Shown: in pieces, positions 1 to 15,900 of the stretch
How the letters are laid out: each line of letters starts with the position of its first letter
How positions within the stretch are numbered: the first letter of the stretch is position 1
Assembly (NCBI RefSeq): GCF_003334335.1
Contig: NZ_QOWQ01000018.1
Strand: one strand, 5' to 3'
DNA length: 64,000 nt
Origin: Escherichia coli
Lineage (GTDB): Bacteria > Pseudomonadota > Gammaproteobacteria > Enterobacterales > Enterobacteriaceae
The notes under the pieces: model-generated
What the model was told of the DNA's origin: nothing
What the model saw: the letters and a program-made list of their open reading frames with translations, nothing else
The model's database searches: none
Position numbers and translations under genes: made by a program

Positions 1-1716
1 GAACTGGCCTACGCTCTCTGGCCTGGTGATGTGGATGCCGGAAACATTGACGGCAGCATCCATCGCTGGGCAAAAAATGAAGTTATCGACAACGACCGCG
101 AAGACTGGAAGCGTATCTCGGCATCAATGCGCAAACAGCCTGAAGCACTTGGCTATGACCGTCAGACTATTTTTGGCCTTGTCCGTGAACGTCCGATCGA
201 CATTCACAAAGATCCCGTGGCGCTGAACAAATACATCACTGAATACCTGACTACAAAGGGCGTGTTTGAAGATGAAGGAACAAATCAGAGCACAACTAAT
301 ACTCTCCCGTCGCCAGTACCAGAAGCTGATGCAGTGGAAACGGCAATGCCGGACAACGAAAAAACCGAATGCAAAGTGGAAGTCGAACCATCTGTAGAGC
401 GTGAGGGGCCGTTCTACTTCCTCTTCACCGACAAGGATGGCGAAAAATACGGTCGCGCAAACAAACTTTCTGGTCTGGAAAAAGCACTAGCCTTGGGAGC
501 TACGGAAATCACAAAAGAGGAATACTTCGCACGTAAAAACGGCACGTACTCAGGTTCACAACAAAATACTGGTGCATCTGACACGACCGCACAACCAGAG
601 CCGGTAAAAGTTACCGCTGACGAAGTAAACAAAATTATGCAGGCAGCCAATATCAGCCAGCCTGACGCCGATAAGTTGCTTGCTGCCTCTCGCGGAGAAT
701 TTGTTGCAGGGATTAGCGACCCGAATGATCCGAAATGGGTAAAGGGGATTGAAACCCGCGATTCTGTAGACCAGAACCAGCAAGAATCGGAACAGAACGA
801 CCAGAAAGCGGAACAAAACAGCCCAAATGCGTTACAAAACGAGCCAGAAACGAAACAACCTGAACCAGTAGTGCAACAGGAACCGGAAAAGATCTGCACC
901 GCCTGCGGTCAGACCGGCGGCGGCAACTGCCCTGATTGTGGCGCGGTGATGGGCGACGCAACATACCAGGAAACATTCGATGAAGAGTATCAGGTTGAAG
1001 TTCAGGAAGATGATCCGGAGGAAATGGAAGGCGCTGAACATCCACACAAGGAGAATGCTGGCAGCGCTCAGGATCACGCCAGCGATAGTGAAACTGGCGA
1101 GACGGCAGATCCCTTAATTACGGTGAACGGTCATCACGTTATCACATCCACCAGCAGGTTGTGGCACCATCTGATGATTGACCTTGAAACAATGGGCAAA
1201 AATCCTGATGCGCCAATAAACTCTCTGGCCGGTAAGTTTTTTGATCCGGCAACCGGAGAGATGGGGCCAGAATTCAGCAAAACTATCGATCTGGAAACCG
1301 CAGGCGGAGTCATCGATCGGGACACCATTAAGTGGTGGCTGAAACAGTCACGGGAAGCACAATCAGCCATTCTGACCGATGAAATCCCGTTGGATGACGC
1401 ACTGTTGCAATTACGGGAATTTATCGACGAAAACTCCGGTGAATTTTTTGTTCAGGTCTGGGGAAATGGAGCCAACTTCGACAACGTGATTTTACGCCGT
1501 TCATATGAACGGCAGGAGATCCCCTGCCCGTGGCGTTACACCAATGATCGTGATGTAAGAACGATTGTTGCCCTGGGGCTGGTGATGGATTTCGATGCTC
1601 GAAGTGTCATCACATTTGAGGGTGAACGCCATAATGCCCTGCACGATGCGCGTTACCAGGCAAAATACGTTTCAGCTATCTGGCAAAAACTGTTCCCGAA
1701 TCAGGCTGATTTTTAA
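1..1716 (+). CDS. Prophage protein, 5'-partial (reading frame open from base 1), with a C-terminal DnaQ-like DEDDh 3'-5' exonuclease domain, a central CxxC-x7-CxxC zinc ribbon and an acidic/Gln-rich linker
   Basis: Frame 1 is open from position 1 to the stop at 1714-1716. Exo motifs are visible in the translation: MIDLETMG (Exo I), WGNGANFDNVIL (Exo II), HNALHDARYQAKY (Exo III). It sits directly upstream of xis-int as in lambdoid early-left regions. Confidence 0.6.
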   Translation, partial: ELAYALWPGDVDAGNIDGSIHRWAKNEVIDNDREDWKRISASMRKQPEALGYDRQTIFGLVRERPIDIHKDPVALNKYITEYLTTKGVFEDEGTNQSTTNTLPSPVPEADAVETAMPDNEKTECKVEVEPSVEREGPFYFLFTDKDGEKYGRANKLSGLEKALALGATEITKEEYFARKNGTYSGSQQNTGASDTTAQPEPVKVTADEVNKIMQAANISQPDADKLLAASRGEFVAGISDPNDPKWVKGIETRDSVDQNQQESEQNDQKAEQNSPNALQNEPETKQPEPVVQQEPEKICTACGQTGGGNCPDCGAVMGDATYQETFDEEYQVEVQEDDPEEMEGAEHPHKENAGSAQDHASDSETGETADPLITVNGHHVITSTSRLWHHLMIDLETMGKNPDAPINSLAGKFFDPATGEMGPEFSKTIDLETAGGVIDRDTIKWWLKQSREAQSAILTDEIPLDDALLQLREFIDENSGEFFVQVWGNGANFDNVILRRSYERQEIPCPWRYTNDRDVRTIVALGLVMDFDARSVITFEGERHNALHDARYQAKYVSAIWQKLFPNQADF

Positions 1717-1777
1717 TGTTCAACCGTCGCCGGTTGTAGTTGGTATTCTGCAACTGGCGCGTTCCGGAGTGATGGTC

Positions 1778-2047
1778 ATGAGCGAACAGTACCTGATTAC
1801 GCTCGACGAGTGGAAACCTAAGCGGTTCAGTCTCCCAATAACAAACACTACCCTGGTGAAATACGGAAAACTTGGATACATCGTACCAAGACCACAAAAA
1901 ATTCGTGGTCGCTGGCTAATAGATCGCCGCGCAGTCTTTGTTGGACCGGGTGAAGCTGGAATTGCGCCGGAAATTCATACTGGCGATGATGACGCACTGA
2001 AGGAGATTTTAACCCATGTCACCGAGGCCACGAAAAAACAGTACTGA
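1778..2047 (+). CDS. xis: Phage excisionase (Xis-like, small basic winged-helix protein)
   Basis: 89-aa ORF (MSEQYLITLDEWKPKRFSLP...RGRWLIDRRAVFV) immediately upstream of and overlapping int by 32 nt. GGAG lies 10 nt before the ATG at 1778. Start chosen within ORF 1595..2047. Confidence 0.6.
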   Translation: MSEQYLITLDEWKPKRFSLPITNTTLVKYGKLGYIVPRPQKIRGRWLIDRRAVFVGPGEAGIAPEIHTGDDDALKEILTHVTEATKKQY

Positions 2048-3134
2048 CGTAGCAGCTCTTTACGAAAAGTTTGATCGCAGAACTGGCAAGGTTTACTACC
2101 AGTATAAAAATCCTGTGACTGGAAAATTTCACGGACTTGGGACAGACAAAGTCAAGGCAGAAAAAATCGCTGCAACAGCCAATCAGCGAATAGCTGCAGC
2201 AGAAGCAGAATATTTCATGCGCAAAATTGATGAAAGTCCATCAGCAACAAAACGTCGGGGTATCAGATTAAAGGCATGGGTTGATCGATATCTGAAAATA
2301 CAGGATTCGCGACTGAAAAATGGAGACATTGCAGCTACAACCCACAAAGAAAAAGTGCGAATGGCTGCATACCTGGTTTCCCGCCTGGGAAACCACCCAT
2401 TGAAAGAACTGGAGGTAAGAGACTTTGCATTAATACTGGACGAGTGGATGGATAAAGACATGGTCAGCACAGCAAGAGTAAATCGCGGATTATGGGTTGA
2501 TATTTATAAAGAAGCACAGCATGCGGGAGAAGTTCCTCCTGGATGGAATCCTCCGAAGGCTACCCGTAAACCGATCCCTAAAGTGACCAGATCCAGACTC
2601 ACCCTGGAAGACTGGCAAAAAATTTATAATGCAACGCCAGAAAAACACTTTATCCGTAACGCAATGCTTCTTGCGATTGTTACTGGTCAGCGCCGTGATG
2701 ACATTTGCCACATGCGTTTTTCAGATGTATGGAATGGACATCTACATATAACCCAAGGAAAAACCGGAATGCGTCTGGCCTTACCTCTTACGCTACGATG
2801 CGATGAAATTGGGGTATCGTTAAAAGAAGTTATTGATGGATGCAGGGACAGAATGTTGAGTCCATACCTAATCCATAGTAGGCACCAGAAACAACCAAAA
2901 CCGATGAGTAAAGACAACCTGAGCGATTACTTCGCCAAAGCGCGAGATCTGGCTGGAATAATTCCACCAGCAGGAAAAACACCGCCAACATTTCATGAAC
3001 AACGCTCCCTGTCAGAACGGTTGTACCGCGCACAGGGTGTCGATACAAAAACATTACTGGGACATAAAGTCCAGGCTACCACCGATCGCTATAACGATAC
3101 TCGAGGTCAGGAATGGGTTAAGTTGGTTATTTGA
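2016..3134 (+). CDS. int: Lambda-family tyrosine integrase
   Basis: 372 aa; the C-terminus (PPTFHEQRSLSERLY...LLGHKVQATTDRYNDTRGQEWVKL) matches the lambda Int catalytic region (R..H-x-x-R..Y pattern). AGGAG RBS lies 10 nt upstream. Confidence 0.9.
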   Translation: MSPRPRKNSTDVAALYEKFDRRTGKVYYQYKNPVTGKFHGLGTDKVKAEKIAATANQRIAAAEAEYFMRKIDESPSATKRRGIRLKAWVDRYLKIQDSRLKNGDIAATTHKEKVRMAAYLVSRLGNHPLKELEVRDFALILDEWMDKDMVSTARVNRGLWVDIYKEAQHAGEVPPGWNPPKATRKPIPKVTRSRLTLEDWQKIYNATPEKHFIRNAMLLAIVTGQRRDDICHMRFSDVWNGHLHITQGKTGMRLALPLTLRCDEIGVSLKEVIDGCRDRMLSPYLIHSRHQKQPKPMSKDNLSDYFAKARDLAGIIPPAGKTPPTFHEQRSLSERLYRAQGVDTKTLLGHKVQATTDRYNDTRGQEWVKLVI

Positions 3135-3197
3135 CAAACACCATATGGAATATCCGTCACCATCTCAGGAAAAAAGTGTTGTAAAATGCGTGGCCTT

Positions 3198-3235
3198 GTT
3201 TTGGGGAAAAGTTTTGGAGAGATTTTGGAGAAAGG
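3198..3235. repeat. Three tandem direct repeats (core TTTTGGRGA) between int stop and the potB/potC junction; candidate Int arm-type binding sites
   Basis: gTTTTGGGGAaaa / gTTTTGGAGAg / aTTTTGGAGAaagg at 3199-3207, 3212-3220 and 3223-3231, read directly from the sequence. Confidence 0.5.
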
Positions 3236-3259
3236 AAAAAATTGAATAAATTCAAAATC

Positions 3260-3304
3260 CTGAAAGTGCTCCACCTTATGAATAAGAAGGTGGAACTCGA
3301 ATGA
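3260..3304 (+). other. Putative prophage attachment-site core overlapping the last potB codons (...NKKVELE-stop) and the potC start
   Basis: Frame-2 reading ends ...LMNKKVELE with TGA at 3302-3304 overlapping the potC ATG at 3301. Upstream of about 3280 the sequence is phage (int) rather than potB. Exact core limits are not determinable without a reference. Confidence 0.35.
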
Positions 3305-4095
3305 TCGGTCGACTGCTTCGCGGCGGTTTTATGACCGCTATCTACGCGTACCTGTATATCCCAATCATTATTTTGATTGTGAACTCCTTTAACAGCTCGC
3401 GCTTTGGCATCAACTGGCAGGGTTTTACCACCAAATGGTATAGCCTGCTGATGAACAACGACAGCCTGTTACAGGCAGCGCAGCATTCACTAACAATGGC
3501 GGTGTTTTCGGCGACGTTTGCTACGCTTATCGGTTCACTGACGGCAGTTGCGCTGTACCGTTATCGCTTTCGTGGTAAGCCGTTCGTTAGCGGAATGCTG
3601 TTTGTGGTGATGATGTCACCAGATATCGTGATGGCGATTTCGCTGCTGGTGCTGTTTATGCTGCTGGGTATTCAGCTTGGCTTCTGGTCGCTGCTGTTCT
3701 CGCATATCACCTTCTGCCTGCCATTTGTGGTGGTGACGGTGTATTCGCGCCTGAAAGGTTTTGACGTGCGAATGCTGGAAGCGGCGAAAGATCTCGGTGC
3801 CAGCGAATTTACCATTCTGCGAAAAATCATTCTGCCACTGGCAATGCCAGCGGTGGCGGCGGGCTGGGTGTTAAGCTTTACCCTGTCGATGGACGATGTG
3901 GTAGTTTCTTCGTTCGTCACCGGACCAAGTTATGAAATTCTGCCGTTAAAAATTTATTCGATGGTCAAAGTCGGCGTATCGCCGGAAGTTAACGCGCTGG
4001 CAACCATATTACTGGTGCTGTCGCTGGTGATGGTTATTGCCAGCCAGCTTATTGCTCGTGATAAAACGAAAGGTAACACAGGGGACGTTAAATGA
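3301..4095 (+). CDS. potC: Spermidine/putrescine ABC transporter permease PotC
   Basis: 264-aa ORF recognised as E. coli PotC; 4-nt overlap with potD. Confidence 0.95.
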   Translation: MIGRLLRGGFMTAIYAYLYIPIIILIVNSFNSSRFGINWQGFTTKWYSLLMNNDSLLQAAQHSLTMAVFSATFATLIGSLTAVALYRYRFRGKPFVSGMLFVVMMSPDIVMAISLLVLFMLLGIQLGFWSLLFSHITFCLPFVVVTVYSRLKGFDVRMLEAAKDLGASEFTILRKIILPLAMPAVAAGWVLSFTLSMDDVVVSSFVTGPSYEILPLKIYSMVKVGVSPEVNALATILLVLSLVMVIASQLIARDKTKGNTGDVK

Positions 4096-5138
4096 AAAAA
4101 TGGTCACGCCACCTGCTCGCGGCGGGTGCTCTGGCACTGGGCATGAGCGCCGCTCACGCCGATGACAACAACACGCTGTATTTCTACAACTGGACCGAGT
4201 ACGTGCCGCCAGGACTGCTTGAACAGTTCACCAAAGAAACCGGTATTAAGGTTATCTATTCGACTTACGAGTCGAACGAAACCATGTACGCCAAGCTGAA
4301 AACATACAAAGACGGTGCCTATGATCTGGTGGTTCCTTCAACCTATTACGTTGATAAAATGCGTAAAGAAGGGATGATCCAGAAGATCGACAAGTCGAAG
4401 TTAACAAACTTCAGCAATCTCGATCCAGACATGCTCAACAAGCCTTTTGACCCGAATAACGACTACTCCATTCCGTATATCTGGGGTGCGACGGCGATTG
4501 GTGTTAACGGTGATGCGGTGGATCCGAAATCTGTCACCAGCTGGGCCGATCTGTGGAAGCCAGAGTACAAAGGCAGCCTGCTGTTGACCGACGATGCCCG
4601 TGAAGTGTTCCAGATGGCGCTGCGTAAGCTGGGCTACTCCGGTAACACCACCGATCCGAAAGAGATTGAAGCTGCATATAACGAGCTGAAAAAACTGATG
4701 CCAAACGTGGCAGCCTTTAACTCCGATAACCCGGCGAACCCGTACATGGAAGGCGAAGTTAACCTCGGCATGATCTGGAACGGTTCTGCTTTCGTTGCAC
4801 GCCAGGCGGGTACGCCAATTGACGTGGTGTGGCCGAAAGAAGGCGGCATTTTCTGGATGGACAGCCTGGCGATCCCGGCAAATGCCAAAAACAAAGAAGG
4901 CGCGCTGAAATTGATCAACTTCCTGCTGCGCCCGGATGTGGCAAAACAGGTTGCTGAAACTATCGGTTATCCAACGCCAAACCTTGCGGCGCGTAAGCTG
5001 TTAAGTCCAGAAGTGGCGAACGATAAAACACTCTACCCGGATGCTGAAACCATTAAAAATGGCGAATGGCAGAATGACGTTGGCGCAGCCAGCAGCATTT
5101 ATGAAGAGTATTATCAGAAGCTGAAAGCAGGACGTTAA
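4092..5138 (+). CDS. potD: Spermidine/putrescine periplasmic binding protein PotD
   Basis: 348 aa with signal peptide; recognised as PotD. Confidence 0.95.
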   Translation: MKKWSRHLLAAGALALGMSAAHADDNNTLYFYNWTEYVPPGLLEQFTKETGIKVIYSTYESNETMYAKLKTYKDGAYDLVVPSTYYVDKMRKEGMIQKIDKSKLTNFSNLDPDMLNKPFDPNNDYSIPYIWGATAIGVNGDAVDPKSVTSWADLWKPEYKGSLLLTDDAREVFQMALRKLGYSGNTTDPKEIEAAYNELKKLMPNVAAFNSDNPANPYMEGEVNLGMIWNGSAFVARQAGTPIDVVWPKEGGIFWMDSLAIPANAKNKEGALKLINFLLRPDVAKQVAETIGYPTPNLAARKLLSPEVANDKTLYPDAETIKNGEWQNDVGAASSIYEEYYQKLKAGR

Positions 5139-5145
5139 TTCAGCA

Positions 5146-5176
5146 AGCGGGCGGTGGTATTACCGCCCGTTTTTTA
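5146..5176 (+). terminator. Rho-independent terminator after potD
   Basis: GCGGGCGGTGGTATTACCGCCCG hairpin followed by TTTTTT. Confidence 0.8.
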
Positions 5177-5195
5177 GTTAGCAAGGATGTGGCTA

Positions 5196-5657
5196 ATGAG
5201 TCAGGACAGTAAAGTTTTCTTTCGTATATTCCTCGGTATCGGTCTGGTACTGATCCTCATTTCTGTTGTTGTCTTTTATAACCAGTTCACCTATAGCAAA
5301 GACGCGATTCATACCGAAGGCGTCATTGTTGATACCGTCTGGCACTCCAGTCATTCTCATCGCACGGGTAAAGATGGTTCGTGGTATCCCGTCGTTGCCT
5401 TTCGACCGACGCCAGATTACACGCTAATTTTCAATTCGAGTATCGGCAGCGATTTTTATGAAGACAGCGAAGGCGATAAAGTTAATGTTTATTATTCTCC
5501 CGGGCATCCTGAAAAGGCTGAGATAAATAACCCGTGGGTTAATTTTTTTAAATGGGGGTTTATCGGCATTATGGGCGTTATTTTTATCGCCGTCGGTTTA
5601 TTAATAAGTATGCCCTCCTCTAAAAAATCACGCAGGAAACGGAAGTCCCGCCCATGA
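5196..5657 (+). CDS. ymfA: Inner membrane protein YmfA (DUF3592-like)
   Basis: ORF 5187..5657; start set at MSQDSK to give about 153 aa. Two hydrophobic segments. Position between potD and ycfZ as in K-12. Confidence 0.8.
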
Positions 5658-6442
5658 AAAAATTCATTATACTGCTCAGTTTACTGATACTCCTGCCTCT
5701 GACAGCAGCCAGCAAGCCATTAATTCCAATAATGAAGACACTTTTTACGGACGTTACCGGTACTGTACCAGATGCTGAAGAGATCGCGCATAAAGCCGAG
5801 CTTTTTCGCCAACAAACGGGAATTGCACCGTTTATTGTGGTTTTACCCGACATTAATAATGAAGCCAGTCTCAGACAAAATGGTAAAGCGATGCTGGCGC
5901 ATGCGTCATCTTCATTGAGTGATGTAAAAGGAAGTGTTCTGTTACTATTTACTACCCGCGAACCACGGTTAATTATGATCACCAACGGCCAGGTTGAAAG
6001 TGGTCTGGACGATAAACATCTCGGCCTTCTGATAGAAAATCACACGCTGGCTTATTTAAATGCAGATCTCTGGTATCAGGGAATCAATAATGCATTGGCT
6101 GTTCTACAAGCACAGATATTAAAACAATCGACGCCGCCACTAACGTATTATCCGCATCCAGGACAACAGCATGAAAATGCTCCCCCCGGCAGCACCAACA
6201 CATTAGGTTTTATCGCCTGGGCTGCGACGTTTATCTTATTTTCCAGGATCTTTTACTACACGACTCGTTTTATTTATGCGTTAAAATTTGCAGTGGCGAT
6301 GACTATTGCCAATATGGGTTATCAGGCTTTATGTTTGTATATCGATAATAGCTTTGCGATTACCAGAATATCGCCACTCTGGGCAGGGCTAATTGGTGTC
6401 TGTACGTTTATTGCCGCATTGTTATTGACGAGTAAACGATAA
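5654..6442 (+). CDS. ycfZ: Inner membrane protein YcfZ
   Basis: 262-aa ORF with signal/TM segments; 4-nt overlap with ymfA; synteny. Confidence 0.85.
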
Positions 6443-6470
6443 AAGAGGCCGGAAAAGTGCGCGTGTATTA

Positions 6471-6571
6471 TGCCGGATGGGGCGCGAACGCCTTATCCGG
6501 CCCACAAAACCCGCAAATTCAATTAATTGCGTCCCCTTGCAGGCCTGATAAGCGTAGTGCATCAGGCAATG
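6471..6571. repeat. REP/BIME element pair
   Basis: GCCGGATGGGGCGCGAACGCCTTATCCGGCC and AGGCCTGATAAGCGTAGTGCATCAGGC palindromic units typical of E. coli REP. Confidence 0.8.
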
Positions 6572-7401
6572 CTTCCCGCTTTTAATCCCTTCAGCAACTT
6601 TTCAACAAACTCAGGCACCACCTGGCTTGCCGGGCCGTAATATTTCTCGGCAAATTCATTACCAACCTGACTCGGTTCAAGATTCAGTTCCACGGTGTGC
6701 GCGCCATGCAGTTTCGCTTCGTGAACAAACCCAGCCGCCGGATAAACATGCCCGGATGTGCCAATGGCAATGAAAATATCGGCCATCGACAACGCCATAT
6801 AAATTTCATCCATGCCGAGTGGCATTTCGCCAAACCACACTACGTGCGGGCGCAAGGGTGCCGGAAACTGGCAACAATGGCATTTATCTTCTGGGGTAAC
6901 GTCTCCTGTCCAGTCGAGAACCTGACCACTTTGTGAACAACGCACTTTCAGCAGTTCCCCATGCATATGAATCACATTGGTATTACCTGCGCGTTCATGC
7001 AGGTTGTCGATATTCTGCGTCACCAGCAAAAAGCGATCGCCGAGGGCGTCTTGCAGTTTAGCCAGCGCAAGATGCGCGGCGTTAGGCTGAATTTCTGGCT
7101 GCTGCAGCTGTCGACGACGGGCGTTATAAAACGCTTGCACCAGTTCAGGATCGCGATCGAAACCTTCCGGCGTTGCCACATCTTCAACCCGATGTTCTTC
7201 CCACAGGCCATCTGCGGCGCGAAAGGTACGAATACCTGATTCCGCAGAAATTCCTGCCCCTGTCAGTACGAGTACTCTTGGTTTTTCCATTGCTTCCGGC
7301 ACCACTTTATCTCTGAAAAAAATACGCTGACGCAAACGCTCGCGCAGGCGGCGTTTATTTTTACGAAAACGACTTAACCGATGACCCCGACGCGACAGCA
7401 T
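6562..7401 (-). CDS. cobB: NAD-dependent protein deacylase CobB (sirtuin), long isoform
   Basis: 279 aa with [14 protein letters not shown] Rossmann motif and a Zn-binding Cys cluster; Arg-rich N-terminal extension. Confidence 0.95.
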
Positions 7402-7416
7402 AGCAACCTCTGTTGT

Positions 7417-8328
7417 TTAATCGGTTAGATGTAGGAAGGCCGCACCACGCATTCCTCCCGCATCACCGTGGCGCGCGCGTTCAATGCGCGGAACACGAGC
7501 TACAGGTAAGAGATGACGAGGCAGCCTGTCCGCCAGTTGCGTTGTGATTGCCGGGAAATTCGATAAGCCACCACCAATGACGACCAGGTCAGGGTCAACG
7601 ATGGTCAGGATATTTCCCAGACAAACCGCTAATAAATCCAGATAACGCTCAACGTGCGCCCTTGCCTGCTCATCGCCTTGATCATAAAGCGCAATAATTT
7701 CGGGAGCCTGCAACGGTTGATGATAATAGTGTTGATACAGCCACGCAAAACCGCGACCAGACAGATAATTTTCAATGCAGCCATGCTGACCACAGCCGCA
7801 GCGGCGTAACGGGAAATCCAACCCCATCATGGTTAACGCATCAACCGGCAGACGCATATGGCCAAACTCGCCGGTAATGTAGCTTTTACCGGTAATCGGT
7901 TTGCCGTTGAAAATCAGCCCGCCGCCAACACCGGTGCCGAGAATCAACCCCATCACCAGTGGATATTGAGTAAATTCATCATCCCAGGCTTCTGAAAGGG
8001 CAAAACAGTTGGCATCGTTATCAAGGCGTACATCGCGATCAAGACGTGCGCTCAGGTCGGCACGCAGCGGTTTACCGCTGGCAGCGGGGACATTGGCGGC
8101 ATACAGCGTACCATCTTCTGTTTCCGGCATTCCCGGAATACCGATGCCGACAGAACCTTTACAGCCAAAACGTTGGTCAGCTTCAGCTACCAGCTCACAC
8201 ACTGCATCTAAAAATGCGTCATAGCTGTCACGCGGTGTCGGCACCCGCTTTTCCCACTGCAACTGCCGACCGCTATCAAACACGCCAAGCGCAATTTTTG
8301 TTCCACCAATATCAAACCCGTAATACAT
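7417..8328 (-). CDS. nagK: N-acetyl-D-glucosamine kinase
   Basis: ROK-family sequence; start set at [11 protein letters not shown] within the longer ORF 7417..8388. Confidence 0.9.
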
Positions 8329-12956: not shown

Positions 12957-15900
12957 ATGCCTGAACAATATCGTTATACGCTGCCCGTCAAAGCGGGTGA
13001 GCAGCGTCTGCTGGGCGAGTTAACCGGCGCAGCCTGTGCAACGCTGGTAGCGGAAATTGCCGAACGTCACGCCGGTCCGGTGGTACTCATTGCACCAGAT
13101 ATGCAAAATGCTCTGCGTTTGCATGATGAAATCAGCCAGTTTACCGATCAAATGGTGATGAATCTGGCGGACTGGGAAACTCTTCCCTACGACAGTTTTT
13201 CGCCTCATCAGGACATTATCTCCTCGCGCCTTTCCACCCTTTACCAGCTACCGACGATGCAGCGTGGCGTACTGATTGTTCCGGTGAATACGCTTATGCA
13301 GCGCGTTTGCCCACACAGTTTTCTCCACGGTCATGCGCTGGTGATGAAAAAAGGTCAGCGCCTGTCACGAGATGCATTACGAACCCAACTGGACAGCGCC
13401 GGTTATCGCCATGTTGACCAGGTGATGGAGCACGGCGAATACGCCACGCGCGGCGCGTTGCTGGATCTCTTCCCGATGGGGAGTGAGCTGCCTTATCGTC
13501 TTGATTTCTTTGATGATGAAATCGACAGCCTGCGGGTGTTTGACGTCGACAGCCAGCGCACGCTGGAGGAAGTAGAAGCGATCAATCTGCTGCCCGCGCA
13601 CGAATTTCCGACCGATAAAGCGGCAATTGAACTGTTCCGCAGCCAGTGGCGCGATACCTTCGAAGTGAAGCGCGATCCAGAACATATTTACCAGCAAGTG
13701 AGTAAAGGCACATTACCTGCCGGGATCGAGTACTGGCAGCCATTGTTCTTCAGCGAACCACTGCCGCCGCTGTTCAGTTATTTCCCTGCCAATACCTTGC
13801 TCGTGAATACTGGCGATCTGGAAACCAGTGCCGAACGTTTCCAGGCTGACACGCTGGCGCGTTTTGAGAATCGCGGCGTCGATCCGATGCGCCCGCTGTT
13901 GCCACCACAATCGCTCTGGCTGCGGGTGGACGAGCTCTTCTCAGAGCTGAAAAACTGGCCCCGGGTGCAGCTAAAAACTGAACATTTACCGACAAAAGCC
14001 GCGAATGCCAATTTAGGTTTCCAGAAACTGCCAGACCTGGCCGTTCAGGCACAACAAAAAGCGCCGCTGGATGCGCTGCGTAAGTTCCTCGAGACTTTCG
14101 ACGGTCCGGTGGTGTTCTCGGTAGAAAGTGAAGGTCGCCGTGAAGCGCTGGGTGAACTGCTCGCACGAATTAAAATTGCTCCGCAACGCATTATGCGTCT
14201 TGATGAAGCCAGCGACCGTGGGCGTTATCTGATGATTGGCGCTGCCGAACATGGTTTTGTCGATACGGTGCGTAATCTGGCGCTGATTTGCGAAAGCGAT
14301 CTGCTCGGTGAACGCGTTGCCCGTCGTCGTCAGGATTCTCGCCGCACCATCAACCCCGATACACTGATCCGTAACCTTGCGGAACTGCATATTGGTCAGC
14401 CGGTGGTCCATCTGGAGCACGGCGTCGGTCGTTATGCCGGAATGACCACGCTGGAAGCGGGTGGCATTACTGGCGAGTATCTGATGCTCACCTATGCCAA
14501 CGACGCCAAACTGTATGTTCCGGTGTCGTCACTGCATCTGATTAGCCGTTACGCAGGTGGCGCGGAAGAAAACGCCCCGCTGCATAAACTTGGCGGCGAT
14601 GCGTGGTCACGCGCGCGGCAGAAAGCGGCGGAAAAAGTGCGTGATGTGGCGGCGGAATTGCTGGATATCTACGCGCAACGCGCCGCCAAAGAGGGCTTCG
14701 CGTTTAAACACGATCGTGAGCAGTATCAGTTGTTCTGCGACAGCTTCCCGTTTGAAACCACGCCGGATCAGGCGCAGGCCATTAATGCGGTACTTAGCGA
14801 CATGTGTCAGCCGCTGGCAATGGATCGTCTGGTGTGCGGCGATGTTGGCTTTGGTAAAACAGAAGTGGCGATGCGCGCAGCTTTCCTGGCAGTAGATAAC
14901 CACAAGCAGGTGGCGGTGCTGGTGCCTACCACCCTTCTCGCGCAGCAGCATTACGACAACTTCCGCGACCGTTTCGCCAACTGGCCGGTACGTATCGAAA
15001 TGATCTCCCGTTTCCGCAGCGCCAAAGAGCAGACGCAAATCCTTGCGGAAGTGGCGGAAGGGAAAATCGATATTCTGATCGGTACGCACAAACTGCTGCA
15101 AAGTGACGTCAAGTTTAAAGATTTAGGCCTGCTGATTGTCGATGAAGAACACCGCTTCGGGGTGCGTCATAAAGAGCGCATTAAAGCGATGCGCGCGAAC
15201 GTGGATATTCTGACGCTTACTGCAACGCCGATCCCACGTACGCTGAATATGGCAATGAGCGGAATGCGTGACCTGTCGATTATCGCCACGCCGCCCGCCC
15301 GTCGTCTGGCAGTTAAAACCTTTGTCCGTGAGTATGACAGCATGGTGGTCCGGGAGGCGATCCTGCGTGAAATTTTGCGCGGAGGACAGGTTTATTATCT
15401 CTACAATGATGTGGAAAACATTCAGAAAGCCGCCGAACGGCTGGCAGAACTGGTGCCAGAAGCGCGGATCGCCATCGGTCACGGGCAGATGCGCGAGCGC
15501 GAACTGGAACGGGTGATGAATGATTTCCATCATCAACGTTTCAACGTGCTGGTTTGTACAACCATTATCGAAACCGGGATCGACATCCCGACAGCCAACA
15601 CTATTATCATTGAACGCGCGGATCACTTCGGTCTGGCGCAGCTGCACCAGTTACGCGGTCGCGTCGGACGTTCGCATCATCAGGCATATGCATGGTTGCT
15701 GACACCGCATCCAAAAGCGATGACTACCGATGCACAAAAACGTCTTGAAGCAATTGCCTCGCTGGAAGATCTCGGGGCAGGTTTTGCGCTGGCAACGCAC
15801 GATCTGGAGATTCGCGGCGCGGGTGAACTGCTTGGCGAAGAACAAAGCGGCTCAATGGAAACCATCGGTTTCTCGCTGTATATGGAGTTGCTGGAAAACG

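Follow-up and report, generated by a model that had tools for sequence, protein, structure and literature searches.

Positions 1-3278 of the window (the whole stretch of Escherichia coli DNA that was analysed, 64 kb) are the right end of a lambda-like prophage, made up of an exonuclease gene, an excisionase gene (xis), an integrase gene (int) and a non-coding arm. They are followed by the residual 3' end of potB, by potC and potD, and by further host genes downstream of potD (Table 1). The exonuclease gene (exo) is oriented as int and potCD, and all three phage genes (exo, xis and int) are directed towards potC. The integrase is a homologue of lambda Int: the Pfam search assigned residues 1-64 to PF09003 (the lambda arm-DNA-binding domain; E 1.3e-21) and residues 194-363 to PF00589 (the tyrosine recombinase catalytic domain; E 1.4e-18), and the lambda Int structures 1z1b and 5j0n matched residues 26-371 with an E-value of about 1e-55. 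The end of int (3134) is 144 nt before the core sequence described below, and a tyrosine integrase with an arm-binding domain adjoins the junction of phage and host DNA, as at an attR.

Table 1. Features of the prophage end, the junction and the adjoining host genes, in window coordinates.
Feature	Position	Strand	Basis or remark
Exonuclease gene, prophage	31..1716	+	Open reading frame; annotated exonuclease in related lysogens
Excisionase (xis) gene	1778..2047	+	ATG at 1778; maps to the annotated excisionase of SW070917; overlaps the start of int
Lambda-type tyrosine integrase, 372 aa	2016..3134	+	N-terminal arm-DNA-binding domain
Phage-side arm of attR, non-coding (the P' arm of attP, proximal to int)	3135..3278	.	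37% G+C; no K-12 identity, CDS or Rfam match
Reported open frame	3185..3304	+	Chance read-through from the phage arm to the eight final codons of potB
Three tandem direct repeats, TTTTGGGGAAA, TTTTGGAGAGA, TTTTGGAGAAA	3199..3233	+	Candidate integrase arm-type sites
Candidate phage core-type site C, TCCACCTTA	3270..3278	.	Inverted repeat of 3287-3294
Common core TGAATAAGAAGG, 12 bp	3279..3290	.	Three-way attL/attB/attR alignment
Residual host potB 3' end, nt 833-858 of 858	3279..3304	+	100% K-12; encodes ..NKKVELE and stop
potC, intact	3301..4095	+	ATG overlaps the potB TGA as in K-12
potD, intact	4092..5138	+	Open reading frame; K-12 and lysogen annotation

In the alignment to K-12 that was run for the identity boundary, identity is unbroken from 3279 (TGAATAAGAAGGTGGAACTCGAATGA...) and absent before it; host sequence starts at this position and not upstream of 3185. 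From 3279 onwards the host part has 1 mismatch in 1900 nt against K-12. When K-12 potB was searched against the window with blastn, only potB nt 833-858 matched (at 3279-3304, 100% identity, with nothing upstream), in agreement with the preliminary description that only the end of the frame 3185-3304 is PotB. The distribution of the junction was assessed by a megablast search of window positions 2900-3700 (801 bp) against 5,426 complete E. coli genomes, of which 5,425 matched. The whole int-potC junction is present in 1583 of the 5426 genomes (~29%), and 3842 of the 5425 matching genomes gave no match covering at least 80% of the 801-bp query. In phage-free genomes (28 of 28 among the matches listed), the match begins no earlier than query position 380, equivalent to window position 3279. 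The empty site is present in K-12 and other genomes, where potB and potC are contiguous.

The empty site (attB) and the junction in the window (attR) were aligned with the attL of strain SW070917, one of six related lysogens in which attL was read; the attL of the window's own strain lies outside the window and would be expected to resemble these. The three sequences run ...CGTTTGC-TGAATAAGAAGG-CAACCGAAATAGATGATTAG... at attL, ...CGTTTGC-TGAATAAGAAGG-TGGAACTCGAATGA... at attB and ...CACCTTA-TGAATAAGAAGG-TGGAACTCGAATGA... at attR. The edges of the shared 12-bp core were found independently from each side, and in the search from the potB side the identity of the empty site to attL ends exactly at the last G of the core. 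In a second family of P arms, the core extends to 14 bp. Some attR alleles have G or A at 3286 (AAG or AAA, synonymous in potB), inside the 12-bp core, and the dyad centre of an inverted repeat that spans the core region (below) lies at 3282. Judged by this dyad centre and the polymorphism at 3286, strands are probably exchanged within a 7-bp overlap at 3279-3285 (TGAATAA).

The repeats in the phage arm follow the consensus TTTTGGRGARA, which has 3 matches in the 64 kb, all of them at 3199-3233, against 0.15 expected, and 0 of 100 shuffles reached 3. The repeats at 3199-3233 are invariant across all aligned attR alleles, and one more copy (TTTTGGAGAA) stands in the same place in both of the otherwise diverged P-arm families at attL, which puts repeats of this type in both arms at the sequence level. 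In the attachment site of lambda, three arm-type sites (P'1-P'3) adjoin int, and the opposite arm carries others. By analogy, the repeats at 3199-3233 look like candidate arm-type sites to which the integrase would bind. At the host end of the arm, a perfect 8-nt inverted repeat (TCCACCTT, 3270-3277, and AAGGTGGA, 3287-3294, with 9 nt between its arms) surrounds 3278-3286 in attR, with weaker symmetry in attB and in the reconstructed attP, and an allelic variant has CCCGCCTT in place of TCCACCTT. The inverted repeat fits a pair of core-type integrase sites. The IHF consensus (WATCAANNNNTTR) has no match with 1 mismatch or fewer in 3135-3300, and a search of window positions 1-8000 against Rfam gave no family match. 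A perfect TTGACA at 3131-3136 overlaps the stop codon of int, has no acceptable -10 element within 15-19 nt downstream and is probably meaningless. In strain 2011C-4251, an insertion of ~870 bp lies within the int-proximal arm, between the int stop and the arm repeats, all three of which are intact; it carries a gene with a DUF2335 domain and a small hypothetical gene on the minus strand (~400-1200 of its locus).

The body of potB is absent from the 64-kb window by blastn with K-12 potB. The preliminary description had suggested that it lies at the far end of the prophage, and this is where it was found in strain SW070917 (100% identical over window positions 2900-3700), in which potA-potB is ~54 kb leftward with a full lambdoid gene set between. 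The PotB of SW070917 has 287 aa and is identical to that of K-12 through ...RLLNKK, after which ATEIDD stands for VELE. Five further lysogens have the same 864-bp potB (O157:H7 LSU61, ETEC H10407, NMBU-W10C18, War and strain 361), and the two P-arm families at attL differ in the tail they give to PotB (ATEIDD or ATEIDN versus VSELDD). At the distal junction of all six lysogens, the target gene is full-length with a phage-encoded terminus: it encodes a complete 287-aa PotB, with six codons of the phage in place of the four native final ones (VELE). The six tail residues are similar in character to the four replaced and the protein is otherwise intact. PotB in lysogens is neither truncated nor missing, and the suggestion that a lysogen would have no contiguous potB, and with it a truncated PotB, is contradicted by these six attL junctions. 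To judge from these relatives, the true phage-derived C-terminus of PotB in the window's strain would be at attL, outside the window, and potB is expected there, some 40-60 kb to the left of the window, to read ...CTGAATAAGAAGG and to continue with six codons from the phage and a stop. The idea that excision would restore potB holds: since the core is common to attL and attR, precise excision would give the native potB-potC arrangement. The attP expected from excision is ...TCCACCTTA-TGAATAAGAAGG-CAACCGAAATAG... or its equivalent in the second P-arm family (family B). A phage collection searched with the reconstructed attP held no free-phage attP record; it matched only two prophage excerpts that run into potC/potD, and records of Stx1a prophages whose sequence stops at the att site.

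Several other features of the attL side were recorded. A strong hairpin with a 14-bp stem (GGCATGCTTTTTAC..GTAAAAAGCATGCC; z = -4.6) lies 30-70 nt after the phage-supplied stop codon of potB, at 14308-14341 of the SW070917 locus and in the same place in O157:H7 LSU61 and ETEC H10407, and the second arm family has a shorter hairpin (GCCGTT..AACGGC) at the same position. The hairpin has no T-run and is not called by the terminator scan. It follows potB in the lysogen; on the free phage genome its place would be across the core from int, a short way downstream, as with the sib/tI retroregulator of lambda. The cargo beside attL varies among lysogens, with a YkgJ-family protein, an S6-family autotransporter peptidase and a YadA-like adhesin in SW070917 (14440-21302 of its locus), the type III effector EspK in O157:H7 LSU61 (1190-1518 of its locus) and a bfpT-regulated chaperone in strain War. 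The phage tails ATEIDD, ATEIDN and VSELDD resemble VELE in character, and the DNA of the tails is partly alike (GTG-AGC-GAA-TTA-GAT in the phage and GTG-GAA-CTC-GAA in K-12); a diverged 3' end of potB may be the origin of the phage arm, the stretch being too short for statistics.

Taken together, we consider it very likely that 3135-3304 is the attR left when a lambda-like prophage used its lambda-type tyrosine integrase to insert itself at the end of potB, in the last codons of the gene. The crossover would have fallen in the 12-bp core common to phage and host, with TGAATAA as its probable place. The int-proximal non-coding phage arm, with its three tandem arm-type sites and one core-type site, would then lie to the left of this core, and untouched host DNA, namely the last 26 nt of potB and then potC and potD, to its right. 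At attL, the reading frame of potB would continue across the core and end with six codons and a stop codon of the phage, which gives the full-length 287-aa PotB its swapped tail; temperate phages that integrate at the 3' end of a gene usually preserve the gene in this way. The boundaries, the core, the repeats, the family of the integrase, the intact PotB of the related lysogens and the prevalence of the junction were observed directly; we infer the binding of the integrase to the repeats, the exact overlap and the presence of the same attL in the window's strain.

The protein PotC (WP_000580316.1) is identical in K-12 and the five lysogens checked, with no sign of decay. Its gene has a Shine-Dalgarno sequence (AAGGTGGA, 3287-3294) that is contained in the potB remnant and, like the ATG at 3301, is identical to that of K-12; both would be host DNA if the overlap is placed at 3279-3285. 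The preliminary description had proposed that the ribosome-binding site and start codon of potC are supplied partly by phage DNA and that potCD expression could be altered thereby. This did not stand up to the alignment, in which the sequence from 3279 onward is that of K-12, and phage and host do not differ in the part within the core. What differs is the upstream context: a prophage of ~54 kb (in SW070917) stands between potCD and both potAB and its promoter, and the ATGA coupling of potC to the translation of potB is lost in the lysogen. That potCD expression could differ in lysogens is a reasonable suggestion; the cause would be the lost upstream transcription and translational coupling and not an altered ribosome-binding site.

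A stronger version of this expectation, which would extend the attR reading and not replace it, is that integration substantially rewires potCD. With the potA promoter and the coupling to potB lost, transcription would reach potCD by read-through from int and xis (in the pL direction) or from a weak promoter in the arm, and the Shine-Dalgarno sequence would be held in an 8-bp hairpin. Consistent with this are the ~54 kb between potAB and potCD, the direction of exo, xis and int into potC, and the description of the operon as disrupted in PMC9453080. A terminator scan of 1700-3500 found one terminator-like site on the plus strand, which is weak and lies inside int (2660-2675), and none between int and potC. 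RNA folding predicted a hairpin between UCCACCUU and AAGGUGGA, which pairs the phage C site with the potC Shine-Dalgarno sequence (-10.9 to -11.1 kcal/mol, z = -2.9, versus -8.1 kcal/mol, z = 0.1, in the K-12 context), and the variant C site CCCGCCTT would keep this pairing via G-U. However, part of the Shine-Dalgarno sequence is paired in K-12 too, the inverted repeat is fully explained by integrase-site symmetry, and an effect on potC translation is speculative. Also against substantial rewiring, no sigma-70-like promoter was found in a consensus scan of 1700-3500, and a rough position-weight scan gave weak candidates only, no better than ~160 other positions in the window, the best of them in the arm being TTTGGA-17-TAAATT at 3224. 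The 100% conservation of PotC in the lysogens checked argues against long-term silencing. On balance, substantial rewiring is possible and, in our judgement, rather unlikely. We hold as slightly more doubtful again the specific proposal that potCD is phage-dependent in ~29% of E. coli, being low or silent in stable lysogens, transcribed by int/xis read-through on induction and subject to sequestration of the Shine-Dalgarno sequence. Nothing specific was found in the literature on potCD expression or spermidine uptake in lysogens, and an array paper on RpoS in EDL933 mentions potABCD only as a whole.

The frame 3185-3304 had been put forward as a phage-derived C-terminus fused to potB. Reading of the sequence confirmed that the frame is open back to 3185 (it is preceded by TAA at 3182-3184 and closed by TGA at 3302-3304, which overlaps the ATG of potC as ATGA) and that its 39 sense codons translate as given (NAWPCFGEKFWRDFGERKKLNKFKILKVLHLMNKKVELE). 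Stop-to-stop stretches of at least 39 codons make up 17% of all such stretches in the 64-kb window, and an open run of this length occurred in 3.7% of mononucleotide shuffles (AT-rich segment 3135-3301, 37% G+C). The only in-frame starts are TTG at 3242, GTG at 3266, ATG at 3278 and GTG at 3290; there is no ATG before 3278, and upstream of 3242 the frame has no usable start codon or ribosome-binding site. RefSeq has no CDS between the integrase gene and potC (strain SW070917, 100% identical across window positions 2900-3700). Among the attR alleles, 5 of 5 nucleotide differences in the phage-derived part of the frame are non-synonymous (C>S, K>T, L>S, H>R). The peptide FGEKFWRDFGE arises because three TTTTGGRGARA repeats are read in the potB frame. 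A real small gene or fusion reading frame at 3185-3304 would call for a start codon with a ribosome-binding site, for conservation of the protein and for annotation or homologues. It was rejected, with no ATG before 3278, a length not above chance, allelic changes in the phage-derived part that are all non-synonymous and no annotated CDS. The 39-codon open frame is a by-product of an AT-rich arm without a stop in the potB frame. What had been described as a fusion is instead the non-coding arm, which happens to share its reading frame with the eight final potB codons of the host, and in annotation the open frame should be called neither a gene nor a PotB fusion.

A shorter part of this frame might nevertheless be translated and re-create the coupling to potC, either as eight codons from ATG 3278 to TGA 3304 or from TTG 3242 to 3304. 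The phage base (A) at 3278 gives ATG, versus CTG in K-12, and is kept in all attR alleles, and the stop belongs to the same ATGA overlap by which potC is coupled to potB in K-12. However, no Shine-Dalgarno-like sequence precedes 3278, where the sequence TCCACCTT is complementary to a Shine-Dalgarno sequence, and the ATG at 3278 falls at a position on which the core site of the integrase imposes a constraint, so that it can be conserved without any coding role; we regard such coupling as very improbable. Least credible of all is a lysogen with no contiguous potB and with a truncated PotB or a chimera whose C-terminus is encoded at 3185-3304, which would suit a frame open to the potB stop and a window from which the potB body is absent, but which is opposed by the lack of a usable start or ribosome-binding site upstream of 3242 and of an annotated CDS, by the arm repeats of the att site that explain the 94 nt upstream, by the uniformly non-synonymous allelic differences in the phage-derived part and by the 287-aa PotB at attL in all six lysogens examined.

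Read as an attR, the junction has well-described counterparts. In passages of the literature that name the site, Sakai prophage Sp6 is placed between potC and potB (PMC8190617; also PMC7609406), a 'PP_potB' is described in O157:H7 clade 8 (PMC9997748), Phi-CFT073-potB is named (PMC4632033) and potC is listed as an insertion site of Stx phages (PMC8065619). These known potB/potC prophages (Sakai Sp6, PP_potB, Phi-CFT073-potB and the Stx1a, Stx2a, Stx2d and Stx2g phages at potC) occupy the same site with int beside potC. O157:H7 LSU61 and the records of the Stx1a phage have this core together with the P arm of family A, and the Stx1a prophages deposited in GenBank have the same arm at their end. 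The prophage end in the window is a different allele, outside the set of complete genomes, with a best match of 95.3% over 3.3 kb (positions 1-3290). The core sequence and the swap of the PotB tail are not spelled out in the passages of the site literature that deal with potB, potC or attB.

In lambda, inverted core-type sites flank a short overlap, and attB is intergenic, between gal and bio. The site in the window is like the attP/attR and Int of lambda in having a homologous integrase with an arm-binding domain, with xis beside int, and by analogy in three tandem candidate arm-type sites proximal to int, at least one distal, and candidate inverted core-type sites round a short overlap. It differs from lambda in the core and arm-site sequences, in its target, which is the 3' end of a protein-coding gene, and in that no IHF consensus was found here (3135-3300). 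Phage 21 and e14 integrate in the end of icd and supply a substitute end for this gene. As with phage 21/e14 at icd and, in the part of PMC4632033 that describes an analogous change of TtcA, Rac at ttcA, a short phage stretch completes the frame, the host protein keeps its full length with a few terminal residues altered, and excision restores the ancestral end. Unlike at these sites, only 4 residues are replaced at potB, by 6. Unlike icd, potB is inside an operon, so that potCD is separated from its promoter, an issue that does not arise at icd. The feature is an ordinary example of a well-known integration site and as such already known; the core, the arm repeats and the PotB tail swap are details and not a new kind of element.

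The potB/potC site is among the most heavily used prophage hot spots of E. coli and hosts Stx phages. Knowledge of potCD expression and of spermidine uptake by PotABCD in lysogens would be modestly useful to the fields of polyamine transport and prophage-host interaction, and would leave the understanding of phage integration as it is. If potCD is phage-dependent, carrying the prophage would measurably change spermidine uptake, and this would cover O157:H7 and many Stx-phage lysogens.
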